From the sequence record MW883059: a stretch of DNA of 64,000 nucleotides. One strand, given 5' to 3'. The notes below the pieces were generated by a model. That model did no database searches. It saw nothing but the letters and a program-made list of their open reading frames with translations, and had not been told where the DNA came from. This document shows, piece after piece, positions 1-62,804 of this stretch; position 1 is the stretch's first letter, and every line of letters starts with the position of its first letter. The translations under genes were made by a program, and so were the position numbers. Source of the stretch: Escherichia phage vB_EcoM_SYGD1.

Positions 1-59
1 GGACCAGAGTATAATGGTCCCGTGGAGTATAAAATCTTTTTAACAAGTGAGAGATAACT

Positions 60-548
60 ATGATTATTAATATTGGTGAATTAGCTCGTGTATCTGATAA
101 ATCCCGTTCTAAAGCAGCAGGAAAATTGGTCGAAATTGTAAGCATTCAGCTTAAACACGGCGTTAAAGATGAAGATTCTGAAGTAAAAGTGCGTATCATT
201 CCTAAAGATGGAAAGTCTAAACCTCAGTTTGGCTATGTTCGTGCGAAATTTCTTGAATCTGCGTTTTTGAAAGCTGTTCCTGCTAAAGGAATTGAAACGA
301 TTGATACTTCGCATGTAGGTGTAGACTTTAAGTGGAAACTCGGTCAGGCTATTAAGTTCATTGCTCCTTGTGAATTTAAATTTATCAAAGATGATGGTGT
401 GGCTGTTTATACTCGTGCTATGTGTGCATACATTACCGATCAGTGGGTAGAAGATGGTGTTAAGCTGTACAACGTGGTATTTTTAGGAACATACAAAGTC
501 ATTCCTGAAAGCTGGATTAAACACTATAGCAAAGCTCTCTATGCATAA
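60..548 (+). CDS. early protein, 162 aa; size and position consistent with T4 MotB
   Basis: ORF length equals T4 MotB (162 aa) and sits upstream of cef/goF-sized ORFs and gene 39; sequence not independently recognised. Confidence 0.45.
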   Translation: MIINIGELARVSDKSRSKAAGKLVEIVSIQLKHGVKDEDSEVKVRIIPKDGKSKPQFGYVRAKFLESAFLKAVPAKGIETIDTSHVGVDFKWKLGQAIKFIAPCEFKFIKDDGVAVYTRAMCAYITDQWVEDGVKLYNVVFLGTYKVIPESWIKHYSKALYA

Positions 549-645
549 AGTTTAAAATTTTTTCATAAAACTATATACATCAGTAGTTGATTATGGTACT
601 ATATCAATATCAACTACTGATACAGAAAACAACTTGGAGAATAAA

Positions 646-915
646 ATGGAAAACTTAATTATCATCGAACAATCTTTCAACGATTATGGTATGGCTTATG
701 GTTATCGTGCGATAATGGAAGATTCTCGTGGATGTGTTATCGATATTGCAGAATGTAAAGATTTACTGCAGCTTTTGAAGATTGTTCGCAAAAATTGGGA
801 TTGTGAAAACATTAAAGCTCGTGTTGTAACGGAAGAAGAAACTGTTTTTCATGATGTAAAATTCGCCAAAGGTGCTGCTACTCTTCTGAAACGCATCGCT
901 CCACTGTTCAATTAA
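646..915 (+). CDS. hypothetical early protein (89 aa from ATG; ORF track starts at TTG 634)
   Basis: ATG preceded by GGAGAATAAA Shine-Dalgarno; downstream of early promoter-like element. Confidence 0.5.
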   Translation: MENLIIIEQSFNDYGMAYGYRAIMEDSRGCVIDIAECKDLLQLLKIVRKNWDCENIKARVVTEEETVFHDVKFAKGAATLLKRIAPLFN

Positions 916-928
916 TGAGGAAATTGTA

Positions 929-1144
929 ATGAAACGCAAAATTGTTCAGAACTGCACTAATGATGAATTTGAAGATGTATTATTCGATCCAGATTTGGTA
1001 GTAGTTCAAAAGGAACACACCATTAAGTTTACTCACTTAACTTCGGTTTATGTTTATGAAAAGGTTGGTGATAAACAGCCAATTTACGGTGTATTTCGTG
1101 AAATTACTGAAGATGGCACAACTTACTGGAAGGAAATTTATTAA
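929..1144 (+). CDS. 71-aa protein, cef-like by size and position
   Basis: 71 aa as T4 Cef; stop overlaps next start (TAATG). Confidence 0.45.
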
Positions 1145-2423: not shown

Positions 2424-2450
2424 ATTCCCGAAACCAAACGAGGATAAGTG

Positions 2451-4268
2451 ATGATTAAGAATGAAATTAAAATTCTGAGCGATATTGAACATATCAAAAA
2501 GCGTAGCGGCATGTACATTGGCTCTTCTGCTAATGAAATGCATGAGCGCTTTCTGTTTGGTAAATGGGAAAGTGTTCAGTATGTACCTGGTCTTGTTAAG
2601 CTTATTGATGAAATTATCGATAACTCAGTAGATGAAGGTATTCGTACTAAGTTTAAATTCGCAAATAAAATTAATGTTACTATTAAAAACAATCAAGTAA
2701 CAGTTGAAGATAACGGTCGCGGTATTCCACAAGCGATGGTTAAAACACCTACCGGTGAAGAAATTCCTGGTCCAGTTGCTGCATGGACTATTCCAAAAGC
2801 AGGTGGTAACTTCGGTGATGATAAAGAACGCGTCACTGGTGGTATGAACGGTGTTGGTTCTAGTTTAACTAACATTTTTTCTGTGATGTTTGTCGGTGAA
2901 ACTGGTGATGGTCAAAATAATATTGTAGTTCGTTGTTCAAACGGCATGGAAAATAAATCGTGGGAAGATATTCCTGGAAAATGGAAAGGAACTCGCGTTA
3001 CTTTCATTCCTGATTTTATGTCATTTGAAACTAATGAGCTATCTCAAGTTTATCTTGACATTACACTAGATCGTCTCCAGACACTTGCAGTAGTTTATCC
3101 TGATATTCAATTTACCTTTAATGGTAAAAAGGTTCAGGGTAATTTTAAGAAATATGCACGCCAATATGATGAACATGCTATCGTTCAAGAACAAGAAAAC
3201 TGTTCTATCGCGGTTGGTCGTTCACCGGATGGTTTTCGTCAATTAACGTACGTCAATAACATTCATACTAAGAATGGTGGCCATCATATTGACTGCGTTA
3301 TGGATGATATTTGTGAAGACCTTATTCCGCAAATCAAACGTAAATTCAAAATTGATGTAACTAAAGCACGTGTTAAAGAATGTTTGACTATCGTTATGTT
3401 TGTTCGTGATATGAAAAACATGCGATTTGATTCTCAAACTAAAGAGCGTTTGACTTCTCCATTTGGTGAAATCCGTAGTCATATTCAACTTGATGCTAAA
3501 AAGATTTCACGTGCTATTTTAAATAATGAAGCAATTTTAATGCCAATTATTGAAGCTGCCTTGGCTCGTAAATTGGCGGCAGAAAAAGCAGCAGAAACTA
3601 AAGCAGCTAAAAAGGCTTCTAAAGCTAAGGTTCATAAACATATTAAAGCGAATCTTTGCGGTAAAGATGCTGACACTACTCTTTTCTTGACTGAGGGTGA
3701 TTCTGCTATCGGATATCTTATTGATGTTCGTGATAAAGAACTTCATGGTGGTTATCCATTGCGTGGTAAAGTTCTTAACAGTTGGGGTATGTCATATGCT
3801 GATATGCTTAAAAACAAAGAACTGTTTGATATTTGCGCAATCACTGGATTGGTTCTTGGTGAAAAAGCTGAAAACTTGAATTATCATAATATTGCTATTA
3901 TGACTGATGCTGACCATGATGGTCTAGGAAGCATTTATCCTTCTCTGCTAGGATTTTTTAGTAATTGGCCAGAACTGTTTGAACAAGGAAGAATTCGCTT
4001 TGTCAAAACTCCTGTAATCATCGCTCAGGTCGGTAAAAAACAAGAATGGTTTTATACAGTCGCTGAATATGAGAGTGCCAAAGATGCTCTACCTAAACAT
4101 AACATCCGTTATATTAAGGGACTTGGCTCTTTGGAAAAATCTGAATATCGTGAGATGATTCAAAACCCAGTATATGATGTTGTTAAACTTCCTGAGAATT
4201 GGAAAGAGCTTTTTGAAATGCTCATGGGAGATAATGCTGACCTTCGTAAAGAATGGATGAGCCAATAG
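2451..4268 (+). CDS. 39: DNA topoisomerase II large subunit, continuous 39+60 form (605 aa)
   Basis: N-terminus MIKNEIKILSDIEHIKKRSGMYIGSS; GHKL ATPase/toprim motifs; single ORF with no gene 60 split, mobA or bypass gap. Confidence 0.92.
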   Translation: MIKNEIKILSDIEHIKKRSGMYIGSSANEMHERFLFGKWESVQYVPGLVKLIDEIIDNSVDEGIRTKFKFANKINVTIKNNQVTVEDNGRGIPQAMVKTPTGEEIPGPVAAWTIPKAGGNFGDDKERVTGGMNGVGSSLTNIFSVMFVGETGDGQNNIVVRCSNGMENKSWEDIPGKWKGTRVTFIPDFMSFETNELSQVYLDITLDRLQTLAVVYPDIQFTFNGKKVQGNFKKYARQYDEHAIVQEQENCSIAVGRSPDGFRQLTYVNNIHTKNGGHHIDCVMDDICEDLIPQIKRKFKIDVTKARVKECLTIVMFVRDMKNMRFDSQTKERLTSPFGEIRSHIQLDAKKISRAILNNEAILMPIIEAALARKLAAEKAAETKAAKKASKAKVHKHIKANLCGKDADTTLFLTEGDSAIGYLIDVRDKELHGGYPLRGKVLNSWGMSYADMLKNKELFDICAITGLVLGEKAENLNYHNIAIMTDADHDGLGSIYPSLLGFFSNWPELFEQGRIRFVKTPVIIAQVGKKQEWFYTVAEYESAKDALPKHNIRYIKGLGSLEKSEYREMIQNPVYDVVKLPENWKELFEMLMGDNADLRKEWMSQ

Positions 4269-8762: not shown

Positions 8763-8791
8763 TTTACATACCACAAGGACTGTGGTACTAT
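8763..8791 (+). promoter_or_regulatory. T4 early-type promoter
   Basis: A/T-rich UP region, GTTTAC 8763-8768, 17-nt spacer, TGTGGTACTAT. Confidence 0.6.
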
Positions 8792-8825
8792 ACAACTATC
8801 AACTGATGCGGATTTGGAGAATAAA

Positions 8826-9486: not shown

Positions 9487-9516
9487 GTTTACAAGACTGT
9501 TCCTCTGTGGTATTAT
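9487..9516 (+). promoter_or_regulatory. T4 early-type promoter inside a 9-bp inverted repeat
   Basis: GTTTAC 9487-9492, TATTAT 9511-9516; arms CTGTTCCTC 9497-9505 and GAGGAACAG 9533-9541. Confidence 0.5.
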
Positions 9517-9544
9517 TACCCTATCAACTACGGAGGAACAGAAA

Positions 9545-12557: not shown

Positions 12558-12588
12558 AGGGAGAGCCGAGGCTCTCCCTTTTTATTTT
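12558..12588 (+). terminator. rho-independent terminator
   Basis: AGGGAGAGC-CGA-GGCTCTCCCT hairpin followed by TTTTTATTTT. Confidence 0.8.
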
Positions 12589-12607
12589 AAAATTTTTTCA
12601 CAAAACG

Positions 12608-12637
12608 GTTTACAACCAAAGCATACTGTGGTACTAT
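12608..12637 (+). promoter_or_regulatory. T4 early-type promoter for motA
   Basis: GTTTAC 12608-12613, TGTGGTACTAT -10; shared leader ACAACTATCAACTACTGATACAG. Confidence 0.6.
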
Positions 12638-12678
12638 ACAACTATCAACTACTGATACAGAATTACGGAGATTAGAAA

Positions 12679-13314
12679 ATGTCTAAAGTAACTTACATCA
12701 TCAAAGCTTCTAACGATGTTCTGAATGAAAAAACTGCTGCGATTTTAATTACCATTGCTAAGAAAGATTTCATTACAGCTGCAGAAGTTCGTGAGGTGCA
12801 TCCAGATTTAGGTAATGCAGTAGTTAATAGTAATATTGGGGTATTGATTAAAAAAGGCTTGGTGGAGAAATCTGGTGATGGATTAATCATTACTGGTGAA
12901 GCTCAGGATATTATTTCAAATGCAGCAACTTTATACGCACAGGAAAATGCTCCGGAACTACTGAAAAAACGAGCAACTCGTAAAGCTCGCGAAATTACTT
13001 CTGATATGGAAGAAGATAAAGACCTCATGCTAAAACTTTTAGATGAAAATGGATTTGTTCTTAAAAAGGTTGAAACTTATCGTAGTAACTATCTCGCTAT
13101 TTTAGAAAAACGCACTCACGGAATTCGTAATTTTGAAATTAACAACAATGGAAATATGCGAATTTTTGGATACAAAATGATGGAACATCATATCCAAAAA
13201 TTTACTGATATCGGTATGTCATGTAAAATCGCTAAAAACGGTAATGTGTATCTTGACATTAAACGCTCGGCAGAAAACATTGAAGCTGTAATCACCGTAG
13301 CATCTGAACTGTGA
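12679..13314 (+). CDS. motA: middle transcription activator MotA (211 aa)
   Basis: Exact length and recognisable T4 MotA sequence. Confidence 0.9.
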   Translation: MSKVTYIIKASNDVLNEKTAAILITIAKKDFITAAEVREVHPDLGNAVVNSNIGVLIKKGLVEKSGDGLIITGEAQDIISNAATLYAQENAPELLKKRATRKAREITSDMEEDKDLMLKLLDENGFVLKKVETYRSNYLAILEKRTHGIRNFEINNNGNMRIFGYKMMEHHIQKFTDIGMSCKIAKNGNVYLDIKRSAENIEAVITVASEL

Positions 13315-15111: not shown

Positions 15112-15384
15112 ATGAATAAAAACATTGATACAGTTCGTGAAATTATTACTGTTGCGTCTATTTTGATTAAATTTTCCAGAGAAGATATTGTTGAGAATCG
15201 TGCTAATTTTATCGCATTTCTGAATGAGATTGGAGTAACGCATGAAGGTAGAAAGTTAAATCAGAATTCATTCCGTAAAATTGTTTCTGAATTAACCCAA
15301 GAAGATAAGAAAACCCTCATCGACGAATTCAACGAGGGTTTTGAGGGTGTATATCGATATCTAGAGATGTATACAAACAAATAA
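15112..15384 (+). CDS. asiA: anti-sigma70 factor AsiA (90 aa)
   Basis: MNKNIDTVREIITVASILIKFSREDIVENRANFIAFLNEIGVTHEGRKLNQ recognised as T4 AsiA. Confidence 0.93.
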   Translation: MNKNIDTVREIITVASILIKFSREDIVENRANFIAFLNEIGVTHEGRKLNQNSFRKIVSELTQEDKKTLIDEFNEGFEGVYRYLEMYTNK

Positions 15385-27401: not shown

Positions 27402-28051
27402 TTAAACTCCGCATGCCTGCTGGTGGTGAAAGATATATTGATGGTAAATCAGTTTATAAATTATACTTAATGATAAAACAACATATGAATGGAAAGTATG
27501 ATGTAATTAAGTATAATTGGTGCATGCGGGTGTCTGATGCCGCTTATCAAAAGCGAAGGGATAAGTATTTTTTCCAGAAGTTATCAGAAAAATATAAATT
27601 AAAGGAACTTGCTTTAATCTTTATAAGCAATCTTGTTGCTAACCAGGATGCTTGGATTGGTGACATCTCTGACGCTGATGCACTTGTGTTTTATCGTGAA
27701 TATATCGGACGCTTAAAGCAAATTAAATTTAAGTTTGAAGAAGATATTCGCAATATTTATTATTTTAGTAAAAAAGTTGAAGTTTCTGCTTTTAAAGAAA
27801 TTTTTGAATATAATCCAAAAGTTCAATCAAGTTATATTTTTAAACTACTTCAATCGAATATAATTTCGTTTGAGACGTTTATCTTGCTTGATTCGTTTTT
27901 AAATATAATTGATAAACATGATGAACAGACTGATAATTTAGTCTGGAATAATTATTCTATAAAGTTAAAGGCTTATAGAAAAATTTTAAATATTGATTCG
28001 CAGAAAGCTAAAAGTGTTTTCATTGAAACTGTGAAATCTTGTAAGTATTAA
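27398..28051 (+). CDS. 59: helicase loader gp59 (217 aa)
   Basis: Recognisable T4 gp59 sequence and length. Confidence 0.88.
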   Translation: MIKLRMPAGGERYIDGKSVYKLYLMIKQHMNGKYDVIKYNWCMRVSDAAYQKRRDKYFFQKLSEKYKLKELALIFISNLVANQDAWIGDISDADALVFYREYIGRLKQIKFKFEEDIRNIYYFSKKVEVSAFKEIFEYNPKVQSSYIFKLLQSNIISFETFILLDSFLNIIDKHDEQTDNLVWNNYSIKLKAYRKILNIDSQKAKSVFIETVKSCKY

Positions 28052-29644: not shown

Positions 29645-29666
29645 TAGATTATATTACTAATTAATT

Positions 29667-29692
29667 GGGGACCCTAGAGGTCCCCTTTTTTA
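29667..29692 (+). terminator. rho-independent terminator after gene 32
   Basis: GGGGACC-CTA-GAGGTCCCC followed by TTTTTTTATTT. Confidence 0.8.
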
Positions 29693-29716
29693 TTTCAAAA
29701 ATTTTTTCACAAAACG

Positions 29717-29746
29717 GTTTACAGGCATAAAGCTTTATGGTACTAT
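29717..29746 (+). promoter_or_regulatory. T4 early-type promoter
   Basis: GTTTAC 29717-29722; TATGGTACTAT -10; shared ACAACTATC leader. Confidence 0.6.
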
Positions 29747-29789
29747 ACAACTATCGGCAATACTGCTGATGATTAAAGAGGAAAATAAC

Positions 29790-30427: not shown

Positions 30428-30456
30428 TTTACATCAGGGTAGTAGTGTGATACTAT
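30427..30456 (+). promoter_or_regulatory. T4 early-type promoter with inverted repeat around the -10
   Basis: GTTTAC 30427-30432; AGGGTAGTAGT...ACTATTACCCT imperfect inverted repeat. Confidence 0.5.
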
Positions 30457-30481
30457 TACCCTATCAACTAAGGAGAATAAA

Positions 30482-42809: not shown

Positions 42810-42839
42810 GTTTACTTTATGGTAGAGTTGTGATATTAT
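42810..42839 (+). promoter_or_regulatory. T4 early-type promoter with 8-bp inverted repeat around the -10
   Basis: GTTTAC 42810-42815; TGGTAGAG 42820-42827 and CTCTACCA 42842-42849 flank TATTAT. Confidence 0.5.
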
Positions 42840-42869
42840 AGCTCTACCAAAACAAATGAGGAAAACAAA

Positions 42870-46219: not shown

Positions 46220-46249
46220 GTTTACTTTGGTACAGGATATGATATTATA
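46220..46249 (+). promoter_or_regulatory. T4 early-type promoter with perfect 8-bp inverted repeat around the -10
   Basis: GTTTAC 46220-46225; GGTACAGG 46229-46236 and CCTGTACC 46252-46259 flank TATTAT. Confidence 0.55.
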
Positions 46250-46284
46250 TACCTGTACCGCAATTAAACATCTTGGAGAATAAA

Positions 46285-57858: not shown

Positions 57859-58978
57859 TTTTAACCTTAACTGGGTCTATTGTTTCCAGTTTCGTTGCAT
57901 TAGTGAACATATATAGATGAGTTATTGAATTATTATTGGATAATTCATGGATGACTTCATCAACGTAAAATTCTGTTTTAAATTGGTTTTTACTATCATT
58001 AAAAATAATTTTAACGCCAGGTGTCAAGTTAAAATTACCGACAGTAGAACATTTAGCATAGCCATCGTATTGCGCCATAGTTTGAAGACGAATAGCTTCT
58101 TCATATCCATTCCTATAAGTCATTTCAGAATAAGCACCTGACCTTGACACTACAATAGAGTTTTCGCCCTTTCCTGTAGTAATCATTGGCAATGAAGAAT
58201 CCAAAAACGAATGCGCATAGATAGTAGCGTTTTTCATTGGGTCACGTTTGTGAGGATTCGATTTAGTCAACCAAACGAAATCATATGCTAATGGATATTT
58301 TAATTCTTGGATGAATTGACCTATTAAAGATGGCTCACCGACAATCATTGGATATGGTTCTTGATTTATCATCATATCATAGTCCATCATGTTAACTCCC
58401 ATGATGTCTTGCCATACAAATACAAATTTGTCACTTCCTACAGCTAGAGCAACTTCTCTGACATATGACAAATAGTTTTCAAATGTACTAGTCCATGGAA
58501 TATCAGGAACATAAGCATTTATTGCATTTATTGCTGGAGTTAATAGCGTGCGGTCTTGATAAATGACACCAAGCATTTCCTTTATAGATTCACCTGCATC
58601 AGGAAAAAACGGTCTGCCAAATTTAAGATTTTCTATAGAATGAATAGTTCCCAATTCAATAGCAATGATGTTATCACCCTTTGAATCTACTGACACAGAA
58701 AAATGCTTACATCCATAAATTCTTGTTTTAACATTATTAATATCGTTTGCATTAGCTACAGAAATCTGAATTATTTCATTTCCATCCATTTTTGTATGGA
58801 TGTTTTTAGAATCATAAAACTGCAGCATTCCTTCATTTCGGCCATAAAGAGAATCCCGCATAGTTAATGTGGTAATAGTAGCAGCTAATTCAACAAATCT
58901 ATTATTACTCCAAGCGTCGTAGCTATCAAACAATTTAACGCTGAGATTTGGATATCCTGGGCGTTGCAACATACTCAT
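57803..58978 (-). CDS. 27: baseplate hub subunit gp27 (391 aa)
   Basis: Exact T4 length; synteny. Confidence 0.88.
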
Positions 58979-62111: not shown

Positions 62112-62804
62112 TTATAAATTAACTGTTTTTCTAAGTATTCTTAGTTTGTACATTGATAATCCAGTAGCTTTAGAAGCATCTTTCATGCATTTATACTTAA
62201 CACCATTTACTTCTATAGGTTTAGCAGCTGGGTTATTAGCTCCTGAATTATCTGGCATGTTATCTTTAATTTTCTGAATAGATTTAGCGGAATGTTTCCT
62301 TCCATACATGCCATTATTTTTACCTGATTGATTGATAGAATGCAATCTTTTAGCTTCTTCAGTCCATTTTGTTGGGTTCATTCTTTTAGTTTTACTAATT
62401 TTACTTCCCCACGTAATTGGACGATTTTTCATGAGTTTTGACATATATTGTTTATGTTCTTCCGTATGGTGTTTTCCGTAAAATGGATTACCTTCACCTG
62501 ATTGAAGTTTTGCCATTTTACGACGTTCCCAGGCGTAAGATTTATTAACGTGTCTTTCATGAGTATTTGAATTCATTCCCATACATATAACGGCTTTAAT
62601 TATACCGTAATGGTTTGGATGAATTTTAGCTAAAAGTTTATGAGCTATAAAATGCTCTTCAGCTGTTAGTTCTACCAAATTACACTTATCATCTGTACCA
62701 CCCATACATCTAGGAATTATATGATGAGTTTCAGTGTATCCATTAAGGCGAGCCCGATTCTGGGCTCTATTAATTAAATTATCATATATTAATTTATAAT
62801 TCAA
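62112..62804 (-). CDS. free-standing HNH homing endonuclease, paralog of the MobE-like gene
   Basis: N-terminus MNYKLIYDNLINRAQNRARLNGYTETHHIIPRCMGGTDDKCNLVELTAEEHFIAH parallels MobE-like ORF; basic C-terminal repeats; start overlaps uvsW stop. Confidence 0.8.
   Translation of the reverse strand: MNYKLIYDNLINRAQNRARLNGYTETHHIIPRCMGGTDDKCNLVELTAEEHFIAHKLLAKIHPNHYGIIKAVICMGMNSNTHERHVNKSYAWERRKMAKLQSGEGNPFYGKHHTEEHKQYMSKLMKNRPITWGSKISKTKRMNPTKWTEEAKRLHSINQSGKNNGMYGRKHSAKSIQKIKDNMPDNSGANNPAAKPIEVNGVKYKCMKDASKATGLSMYKLRILRKTVNL

Follow-up and report, generated by a model that had tools for sequence, protein, structure and literature searches.

Genomic context of the repeat

The window analyzed here is a 64,000-nt stretch of the genome of Escherichia phage vB_EcoM_SYGD1 (MW883059), the plus strand of which has the orientation of T4 early transcription and the first 3 kb of which are up to 97% identical to Tequatrovirus (T4-like) genomes. 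The repeat under study is located immediately downstream of motB, and the following features were assigned to the region.

60-548, plus strand: motB, with its stop codon at 546-548
549-572, plus strand: UP-element-like A/T-rich tract aagtttaaaattttttcataaaac, directly 3' of the motB stop codon
573-578, plus strand: degenerate -35 element, ATATAC at the place of GTTTAC in the T4 consensus, located by a -10-anchored alignment that includes 34 further T4 early promoters
579-591, plus strand: perfect 13-nt left arm of the repeat, ATCAGTAGTTGAT, within the -35/-10 spacer (about -31 to -19) and continued to 598 by imperfect pairing
579-621, plus strand: whole stem-loop predicted for motB read-through RNA (13 bp, a 2x2 internal loop, 5 bp, a 3-nt loop)
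594-602, plus strand: extended -10 element, TGG-TACTAT (TGn at 594-596, hexamer at 597-602), forming the centre and loop of the palindrome
609-621, plus strand: perfect 13-nt right arm, ATCAACTACTGAT, starting at the predicted +1, with imperfect pairing back to 602
622-635, plus strand: unpaired linker from hairpin to ribosome site, to which the intergenic substitutions among relatives are confined
636-646, plus strand: Shine-Dalgarno sequence (SD) GGAG inside GGAGAATAAAA, with the ATG at 646
646-915, plus strand: 89-aa early ORF (phrog_3720, function unknown) downstream of the repeat promoter, a stub in T4 and many relatives
929-1144, plus strand: cef, followed onward by gene 39

The intergenic sequence between motB and cef in T4 (AF158101) is identical to that of the window, repeat included, and the T4 GenBank record has no promoter features annotated for this region. 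The ORF at 646-915 is whole in the window and in two loci from relatives (L008 and L025), is represented by a stub in T4, and is deleted in four other loci (L006, L007, L009 and L010). The junction of the T4 stub (locus L001, about 2984-3060, minus strand) is at an AAAATT microhomology inside the ORF and outside the stem-loop. The motB region of T4 is dispensable (PMC1702504). Further downstream, the large subunit of topoisomerase II is encoded in the window by one 606-aa ORF (2448-4268) and in T4 by the split genes 39 and 60, with mobA in between.

The segment 549-646 was categorized as a putative T4-type early promoter between motB and the small ORF. The A/T-rich tract aligns with the aaaattttttcacaaaac tract located 5' of other T4-type early promoters and with the tracts at 12586-12607 and 29696-29716, and among relatives varies in A/T-run length alone. 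The -35 is weak in either register, as ATATAC (573-578) matches GTTTAC at 4 of 6 positions and TATACA (574-579) matches TTGACA at 4 of 6 with a 17-nt spacer to the -10. A generic sigma-70 scan did not call the promoter at 549-646, which has 8 of 12 core matches and this weak -35. The hexamer at 597-602 is of the TAnnnT form with a preceding TGn, as expected of a T4-type early promoter; TACTAT is also the hexamer of 14 other predicted T4 early promoters, and TGGTACTAT of this -10 is found again at 8784, 12630 and 29739. By spacing, transcription would start at A609, 7 nt after the -10 and the first base of the right arm.

Downstream of the repeat, the linker occurs among relatives as ACAGAAAACAACTT, ATAGAAAATAATTT or ACAGAAAATAACTT, and the region from the SD to the start codon (636-648) reads GGAGAATAAAATG. 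Within it, GGAGAATAAAA at 636 reproduces exactly the 11 nt that Durand et al. 2006 (PMC1702504) defined as the target of RegB/S1 cleavage; according to these authors, RegB requires GGAGAAUAAAA and is blocked by secondary structure. The same 11-mer occurs five times in the window (636, 8816, 30472, 45875 and 46275), each time on the plus strand, which is the early-gene strand, and at least four of the five copies also serve as the SD of a gene.

Geometry of the inverted repeat and expectation by chance

The original prediction described a perfect 11-bp inverted repeat around a -10 element. The two arms, CAGTAGTTGAT (581-591) and ATCAACTACTG (609-619), are exact reverse complements around TATGGTACTATATCAAT, and the hexamer TACTAT at 597-602 does stand at the centre of the repeat. 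The perfect arms proved longer than first called, at 13 bp (ATCAGTAGTTGAT, 579-591, and ATCAACTACTGAT, 609-621), and a repeat search extended them imperfectly to 20-nt arms (579-598 and 602-621) that are 85% complementary and 3 nt apart. The segment 579-621 is thus a 43-bp near-palindrome centred on the -10 hexamer (597-602). When the window was searched for the 11-mer with at most one mismatch, it was found 8 times vs 1.3 expected.

The repeat could be a functionless product of chance or a mutational quasi-palindrome, made for example by templated correction of a less perfect repeat and kept through close kinship. About one perfect 11-bp inverted repeat is expected per window: with a minimum arm of 11 bp and loops no longer than 40 nt, the window contains 4 perfect repeats of this kind vs 1.07 per shuffle, and the 11-bp repeat as first described would thus be unremarkable. 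The 13-bp repeat argues against chance, as raising the minimum arm to 13 bp leaves 2 repeats in the window vs 0.10 per shuffle. A duplex of -19.3 kcal/mol or better in promoter geometry is found at 0.22% of random T4 positions. Further perfect inverted repeats in the window are one of 13 bp composed of A and T only (27459-27471 / 27506-27518), one of 12 bp (13161-13172 / 13191-13202), and one of 11 bp from 30771 with a 9-nt loop.

The leader module and its copies

The right arm belongs to a longer sequence that recurs at other early promoters of the window, of which three are listed.

8784-8808, plus strand: early promoter with a shortened leader module, in which ATCAACT-GAT is kept
12630-12660, plus strand: -10 and leader of the motA early promoter, with the same module (right arm at 12644-12656) and a spacer that is not complementary
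29739-29755, plus strand: early promoter with only GGTACTATACAACTATC in common with the module

The right arm had been said to recur, together with the following GATACAG, downstream of the -10 at 12638-12660, and ATCAACTACTGATACAG is identical at 609-625 and 12644-12660. Including the -10, the 31-mer GGTACTATACAACTATCAACTACTGATACAG is found exactly at 12630-12660 and with 3 mismatches at 595-625, with 0 expected, such that the repeat promoter and the motA promoter have 28 of 31 nt of -10 and leader in common. The two partial copies that had been proposed fared less evenly: 8791-8808 does keep ATCAACT-GAT, and only that, whereas 29747-29758 shares only ACAACTATC, with just "ATC" of the arm. The left arm has no other copy in the window. 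At the motA promoter, the spacer pairs with its own leader at only -4.5 kcal/mol, ranking 8 of 9. The module is carried by 10 early promoters in the window and 35 predicted ones in T4. The motA and frd.3-type early promoters have G+C-rich, terminator-like hairpins with T-runs directly upstream (about 12558-12585 and 29664-29695), and these sites are terminator-promoter composites without a hairpin straddling the -10.

Two readings of the site had been put forward, a shuffled leader module and an operator-like site. The former is borne out, as the right arm is located within a promoter-leader-SD cassette of which several early genes have a copy, both in the window and in T4, and the cassette adjoins a presence/absence polymorphism of the downstream ORF and fits the published concept of the PeSL, or promoter-early stem-loop (PMC2839356, PMC4122927). 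At this locus in the window and in the other genera described below, it is invariably the conserved leader that supplies the right arm (..CCTATCAAC, or ATCAACTAC here), and the part that has adapted is the left arm. An operator would require a dimeric phage or host protein on ATCAGTAGTTGAT-N17-ATCAACTACTGAT that represses by covering the -10. The dyad is perfect, with 13 bp per arm, and is centred on the -10, and the mechanism by which early promoters are shut off is not understood according to reviews (PMC2988021, PMC3014915), all of which would suit such a protein. The uniqueness of the left arm in the window argues against it, as does the distance of about 30 bp between the half-site centres, which is unusually wide for a simple dimer.

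Conservation among T4-like phages

A 97-nt segment containing the repeat was present at ≥95% identity in 494 of the 535 matching phage records. No variation of the palindrome was seen in 6 IMG/VR loci or in about 15 T4-like metagenome contigs, the latter collected by an 18-mer search in which most matches were unrelated chance matches. This invariance of the dyad would also be expected of an operator. The parts that vary among relatives are the upstream A/T run, the 14-nt linker at 622-635, the SD context, and the ORF. Outside the search pattern, 0 of 25 arm positions are variable vs 3 sites in the 14-nt linker, which counts against a functionless repeat. On the other side, no covariation was seen within Tequatrovirus (IMG/VR, metagenomes and phage collection), where the arms are invariant, and the MotB proteins of these relatives are 87-98% identical, as a repeat kept by kinship would predict.

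Loci from other genera were also considered. The hit H94 proved to be a paralogous promoter rather than an orthologue, and several of the more distant MotB homologues were set aside as tandem paralogues without an intergenic gap; the informative genera at the motB locus were only Dhakavirus and Gaprivervirus / Yersinia phage P8. In Dhakavirus, GGTAGGGTA and TACCCTATC flank the -10 at the same locus. In Gaprivervirus TH15 and Yersinia phage P8 (L015 and L016), a hairpin of the form GATAGGGT-aauuuu-GCCCTATC is located about 20-45 nt past the stop codon of the motB-like gene and before the next gene, with no recognisable promoter. Across genera, therefore, the sequence at the locus differs and the hairpin remains. 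That more distant genera have a different hairpin at the same place speaks against chance, and its retention where a promoter is not recognisable speaks against an operator. The TH15 and P8 hairpins suggest that the stem-loop has a role independent of initiation.

Predicted RNA structure, translation, and termination

The RNA spanning 540-680 was predicted to fold with a minimum free energy of -24.9 kcal/mol vs -14.0 +/- 2.9 kcal/mol for shuffled sequences (z -3.7, 0 of 200 as stable), and the RNA starting at 609 was predicted to be unstructured (z 0.17). The left arm is 5' of the predicted start, at about -31 to -19, so that read-through RNA alone could fold into the hairpin. Translational masking was considered as the consequence and rejected for this site. 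The predicted unpaired probability of the stretch from SD to AUG is 0.45 in read-through RNA vs 0.47 in the promoter's own RNA, and because the two values are so similar, masking is not the role of the hairpin here. With the right arm ending at 621, the SD, which begins at 636, is outside the paired region. Sister promoters of T4 have larger differences in SD accessibility between read-through and own RNA: 0.15 vs 0.74 at 15264, 0.23 vs 0.67 at 75405, 0.31 vs 0.67 at 62773 (regB), and 0.33 vs 0.72 at 166783.

Transcription termination was evaluated as well. A terminator scan of 1-1200 found no terminator-like site, including the interval from the motB promoter (-10 at 10-15) to the repeat. An intrinsic terminator at the repeat was rejected in view of this negative scan, the AT-rich stem, the lack of a U-tract, and the sequence following the stem, ACAGAAAAC. 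The idea that such hairpins replace upstream terminators was likewise abandoned, as upstream terminators were only non-significantly rarer at promoters with a hairpin than at the others (2/19 vs 4/16, Fisher p 0.38). Comparison of 1-1500 with the Rfam covariance models identified no family; a chance snoRNA match (E 0.94) was located elsewhere.

Spacer-leader pairing across T4 early promoters

To place the site among its sister promoters, 35 predicted early promoters of the reconstructed T4 genome were aligned on the -10. For each of these, the best RNA duplex between the 22-nt spacer and the 45 nt following its own -10 was calculated and compared with the duplexes formed with the leader of every other promoter. 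Duplexes with the own leader averaged -12.7 kcal/mol vs -7.8 kcal/mol for cross pairs (z -10.7, 0 of 20,000 permutations). The own leader was the best partner for 17 of the 35 promoters and the second best for 1 more. The T4 copy of the repeat site ranked first, with a self duplex of -19.3 kcal/mol vs -10.1 kcal/mol for cross pairs. Duplexes of -19 kcal/mol or better were found at 28.6% of the T4 early promoters vs 0.22% of random positions, an enrichment of about 130-fold. When late promoters, identified as TATAAATA sites, were used as a control with the same geometry, the mean was -9.1 kcal/mol. With the late sites only mildly enriched, this test shows the spacer-leader pairing effect to be specific to early promoters. 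With the geometry enriched at T4 early promoters to this extent, in addition to the length of the perfect arms and the invariance described above, we consider a functionless repeat quite unlikely.

The arms of the different promoters are unrelated in sequence, T4 examples being TCCTAGAATTGTGA (ipII), AGTTGACAAGATT, TGATGAGGTA and TCTCCTGTAG. About half of the T4 early promoters have a palindrome of their own around the -10, each differing in sequence and geometry; the start of the right arm ranges from -5 to about +25, and in roughly half of the hairpin cases this arm extends over the SD. These palindromes also differ in arm length and loop size and have no common half-site, which is hard to reconcile with an operator.

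The same self-pairing was identified at 4 of the 10 early promoters in the window (597, 9511, 42834 and 46243). At the early promoter with arms at 9496-9510 and 9527-9542, 14 bp form between spacer and SD with G.U pairs included (ACGGAGGAACAG, -23.8 kcal/mol), and the ORF that follows encodes a 37-aa hydrophobic peptide. Hairpins of their own straddle the -10 at three further promoters: 42814-42830 / 42840-42862 (-15.2 kcal/mol), 46227-46237 / 46251-46261 (-15.1 kcal/mol), and 30435-30442 / 30457-30463 (-8.7 kcal/mol), the arms being mutually unrelated. The early promoter of motB itself (TATAAT at 10-15, window 1-20) is flanked by the inverted repeat GGACC / GGTCC, which is cut by the start of the window; in T4 the corresponding repeat is GGGACC / GGTCCC, at -19.5 kcal/mol.

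Strand preference of the hairpins

Helices made of Watson-Crick pairs only score equally on both strands, and any difference between sense and antisense therefore arises from G.U pairs. Over the 35 T4 promoters, the mean duplex was -12.67 kcal/mol for the sense strand vs -10.70 kcal/mol for the antisense strand, and the sense excess over the cross-pair control was reached in only 2 of 20,000 permutations. The 19 strong hairpins contain 29 G.U pairs on the sense strand vs 12 on the antisense strand. The orthologous promoters at window 9511 and T4 166783 differ by three substitutions, each of which interconverts G.U and G-C and keeps the pairing. Two T4 paralogues, at 57966 and 20588 (minus strand; loci L003 and L002), both with a TATAGT -10 and a 13-bp hairpin, are related by a compensatory double change from T-A to C-G (gatt/aatc vs gact/agtc). 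The hairpin of the repeat site has 0 G.U pairs, so this strand test is uninformative for 579-621 alone.

From these data we infer that the hairpin class acts on the sense strand, as RNA or as non-template ssDNA. Because G.U is tolerated on that strand only, a double-stranded operator or a symmetric cruciform is a poor fit. The tolerance of G.U-type pairs and bulges, taken with the unique left arm and the unrelated palindromes of the other promoters, goes against the operator-like reading of the original prediction, and we regard a protein-binding dyad as highly improbable.

An element acting at the DNA level, as a cruciform or ssDNA hairpin, could be a recombination point, as in the PeSL mini-circle model, or could modulate melting or occupancy of the -10. 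The ORF directly downstream is present in the window and lost in T4 and others, as expected near a recombination point; moreover, the arms at this site are perfectly Watson-Crick, such that either strand could fold, and the -10 is exactly in the loop. However, the better pairing of the sense strand across T4, which stems from G.U (G.T in DNA), is not predicted by a symmetric cruciform, the deletion junction in T4 is at the microhomology within the ORF and not at the stem-loop, and the right arm reaches the SD in several sister promoters, which points to a role in RNA. An ssDNA hairpin of the sense strand predicts a G.T bias equal to that of RNA. On balance, an element acting through DNA structure is unlikely, and we favor a hairpin that functions in RNA.

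Relation to described promoter and hairpin systems

The closest described elements are the PeSLs, a combination of early promoter and stem-loop that Arbiol et al. 2010 (PMC2839356) defined in RB49/phi1. For the position of the stem-loop, the -35/-10 interval or an overlap with the -10 is "most commonly" given, and G-T pairs are drawn in it; PeSLs are repeated in hyperplastic regions, flank ORFans, and are described as terminators and recombination points (PMC2839356). T-even analogues on T4 early promoters, as cited in that paper from Repoila et al. 1994, have weaker, AT-rich stems and are at internal-protein loci, and the PeSLs of PST/T4 were catalogued by Comeau et al. 2014 (PMC4122927). The repeat site resembles a PeSL in being an intergenic composite of A/T tract, early promoter, stem-loop and SD, in having a stem-loop across the -10 box, a layout that is among the two commonest for PeSLs, in belonging to a motif repeated genome-wide (10 promoters in the window, the 31-mer again at 12630, and 35 promoters in T4), and in adjoining a small ORF of unknown function that some close relatives have and others lack. 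G-T pairs in the stems are a further likeness of the class, with none in the stem at the repeat site. Unlike the PeSLs of RB49/phi1, for which terminator activity was shown, the site has an AT-rich stem without the Gn-loop-Cn form and without a U-tract. The stem-loops of PST/T4 are described as "just upstream" of the promoter (PMC4122927, legend), whereas here and at about half of the T4 promoters the arms straddle the -10. In anatomy, repetition and indel association the site thus fits the PeSL class, with the terminator-like appearance absent.

As a promoter, the site shares with the T4 Pe promoters (Hinton 2010, PMC2988021) the UP-like tract, the TGn, the TAnnnT -10, conserved positions additional to the sigma-70 elements, and a downstream early gene with a GGAG SD; it differs in its -35, which is ATATAC and not GTTTAC, and its start site is assigned here by spacing. 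Complementarity between spacer and leader is not mentioned in the early-promoter reviews PMC2988021 and PMC3014915.

Promoters embedded in hairpins that mask translation have been described for the T4 late genes e, soc, 49, I-TevI and segB (PMC3014915, PMC2988022), and the known examples are late genes throughout (PMC2988022). As in the e/soc/49 type, the 5' arm at the repeat site is upstream of an internal start, so that the helix would be possible in read-through RNA only. The likeness is closer at the sister early promoters T4 62773 (regB), 15264 and 166783 and at 9496-9542 of the window, where the spacer pairs with the SD. The differences are that the promoters of the described masks are late and that the 3' arm at the repeat site ends 14 nt before the SD, with unchanged accessibility.

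In T7 early mRNA, intercistronic hairpins are processed by RNase III. The predicted stem at the repeat site is similar to these, being an intercistronic stem of roughly 20 bp with an internal loop between two early cistrons, and cleavage of the T7 type could leave a protective 3' hairpin here. The decay of T4 early mRNA is attributed mainly to RegB, RNase E and RNase G (PMC3014915).

Proposed role of the hairpin

The repeat is real and non-random, and it is one case of a known T4-like design and not a repressor binding site. Our preferred reading is that the site is probably a PeSL-like early promoter set in a stem-loop, with the hairpin acting on the sense strand, most likely in read-through RNA. 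The 13-nt left arm fills the otherwise unconstrained spacer between -35 and -10 and is complementary to the first 13 nt of the predicted leader, the leader itself being a conserved module common to several early cassettes. Transcripts initiated at A609 would be without the left arm and have an unstructured leader. If transcription instead read through from the motB promoter, the RNA would contain both arms and could form a hairpin of roughly 20 bp with the -10 sequence in its loop, ending 14 nt 5' of the consensus RegB/S1 site and SD. Such a hairpin could act as a transcript-boundary element in the read-through RNA, that is, as a processing or pause site or as a 3' protective hairpin for the motB message after RegB has cut at GGAG. 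Many sister promoters have a right arm that covers the SD, and at these both translation and RegB cleavage of the read-through RNA would be masked. Processing, 3' stabilisation, attenuation and recombination may all be considered as roles of the hairpin at this site, among which we favor a boundary or 3'-protective hairpin upstream of the RegB site.

Implications for T4-like phages

Taken as a single site, the repeat changes little: the T4 early cassette to which it belongs is conserved and of a type already described, and no new regulator site is added. More useful is the wider rule, strong and quantifiable, that spacer and leader of the same T4 early promoter are complementary, often across the SD and RegB target, with the sense strand bearing the G.U pairs. 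We tentatively propose, as a possibility that we hold to be less than even, that this complementarity constitutes a genome-wide sense-strand RNA switch in T4-like phages, in which, at roughly half of the early promoters, the structure of a transcript depends on the promoter from which it originates. If so, the source promoter would at many sites also set the translatability and RegB sensitivity of the first cistron, and the promoter-in-hairpin logic of e, soc and 49, so far limited to late genes, would extend to the immediate-early class. The stem-loops of PeSLs would gain an RNA-level function beyond termination and recombination, and the hairpin at 579-621 would represent a subclass in which a cistron boundary is marked and the SD stays free. 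For annotation and promoter engineering in T4-like therapeutic phages, a change in a spacer may alter RNA structure. An RNA-level role could explain how compact phage operons prevent the expression of immediate-early genes from read-through transcripts, by what means RegB tells transcripts apart, and why promoter spacers regarded as "unconstrained" are conserved.
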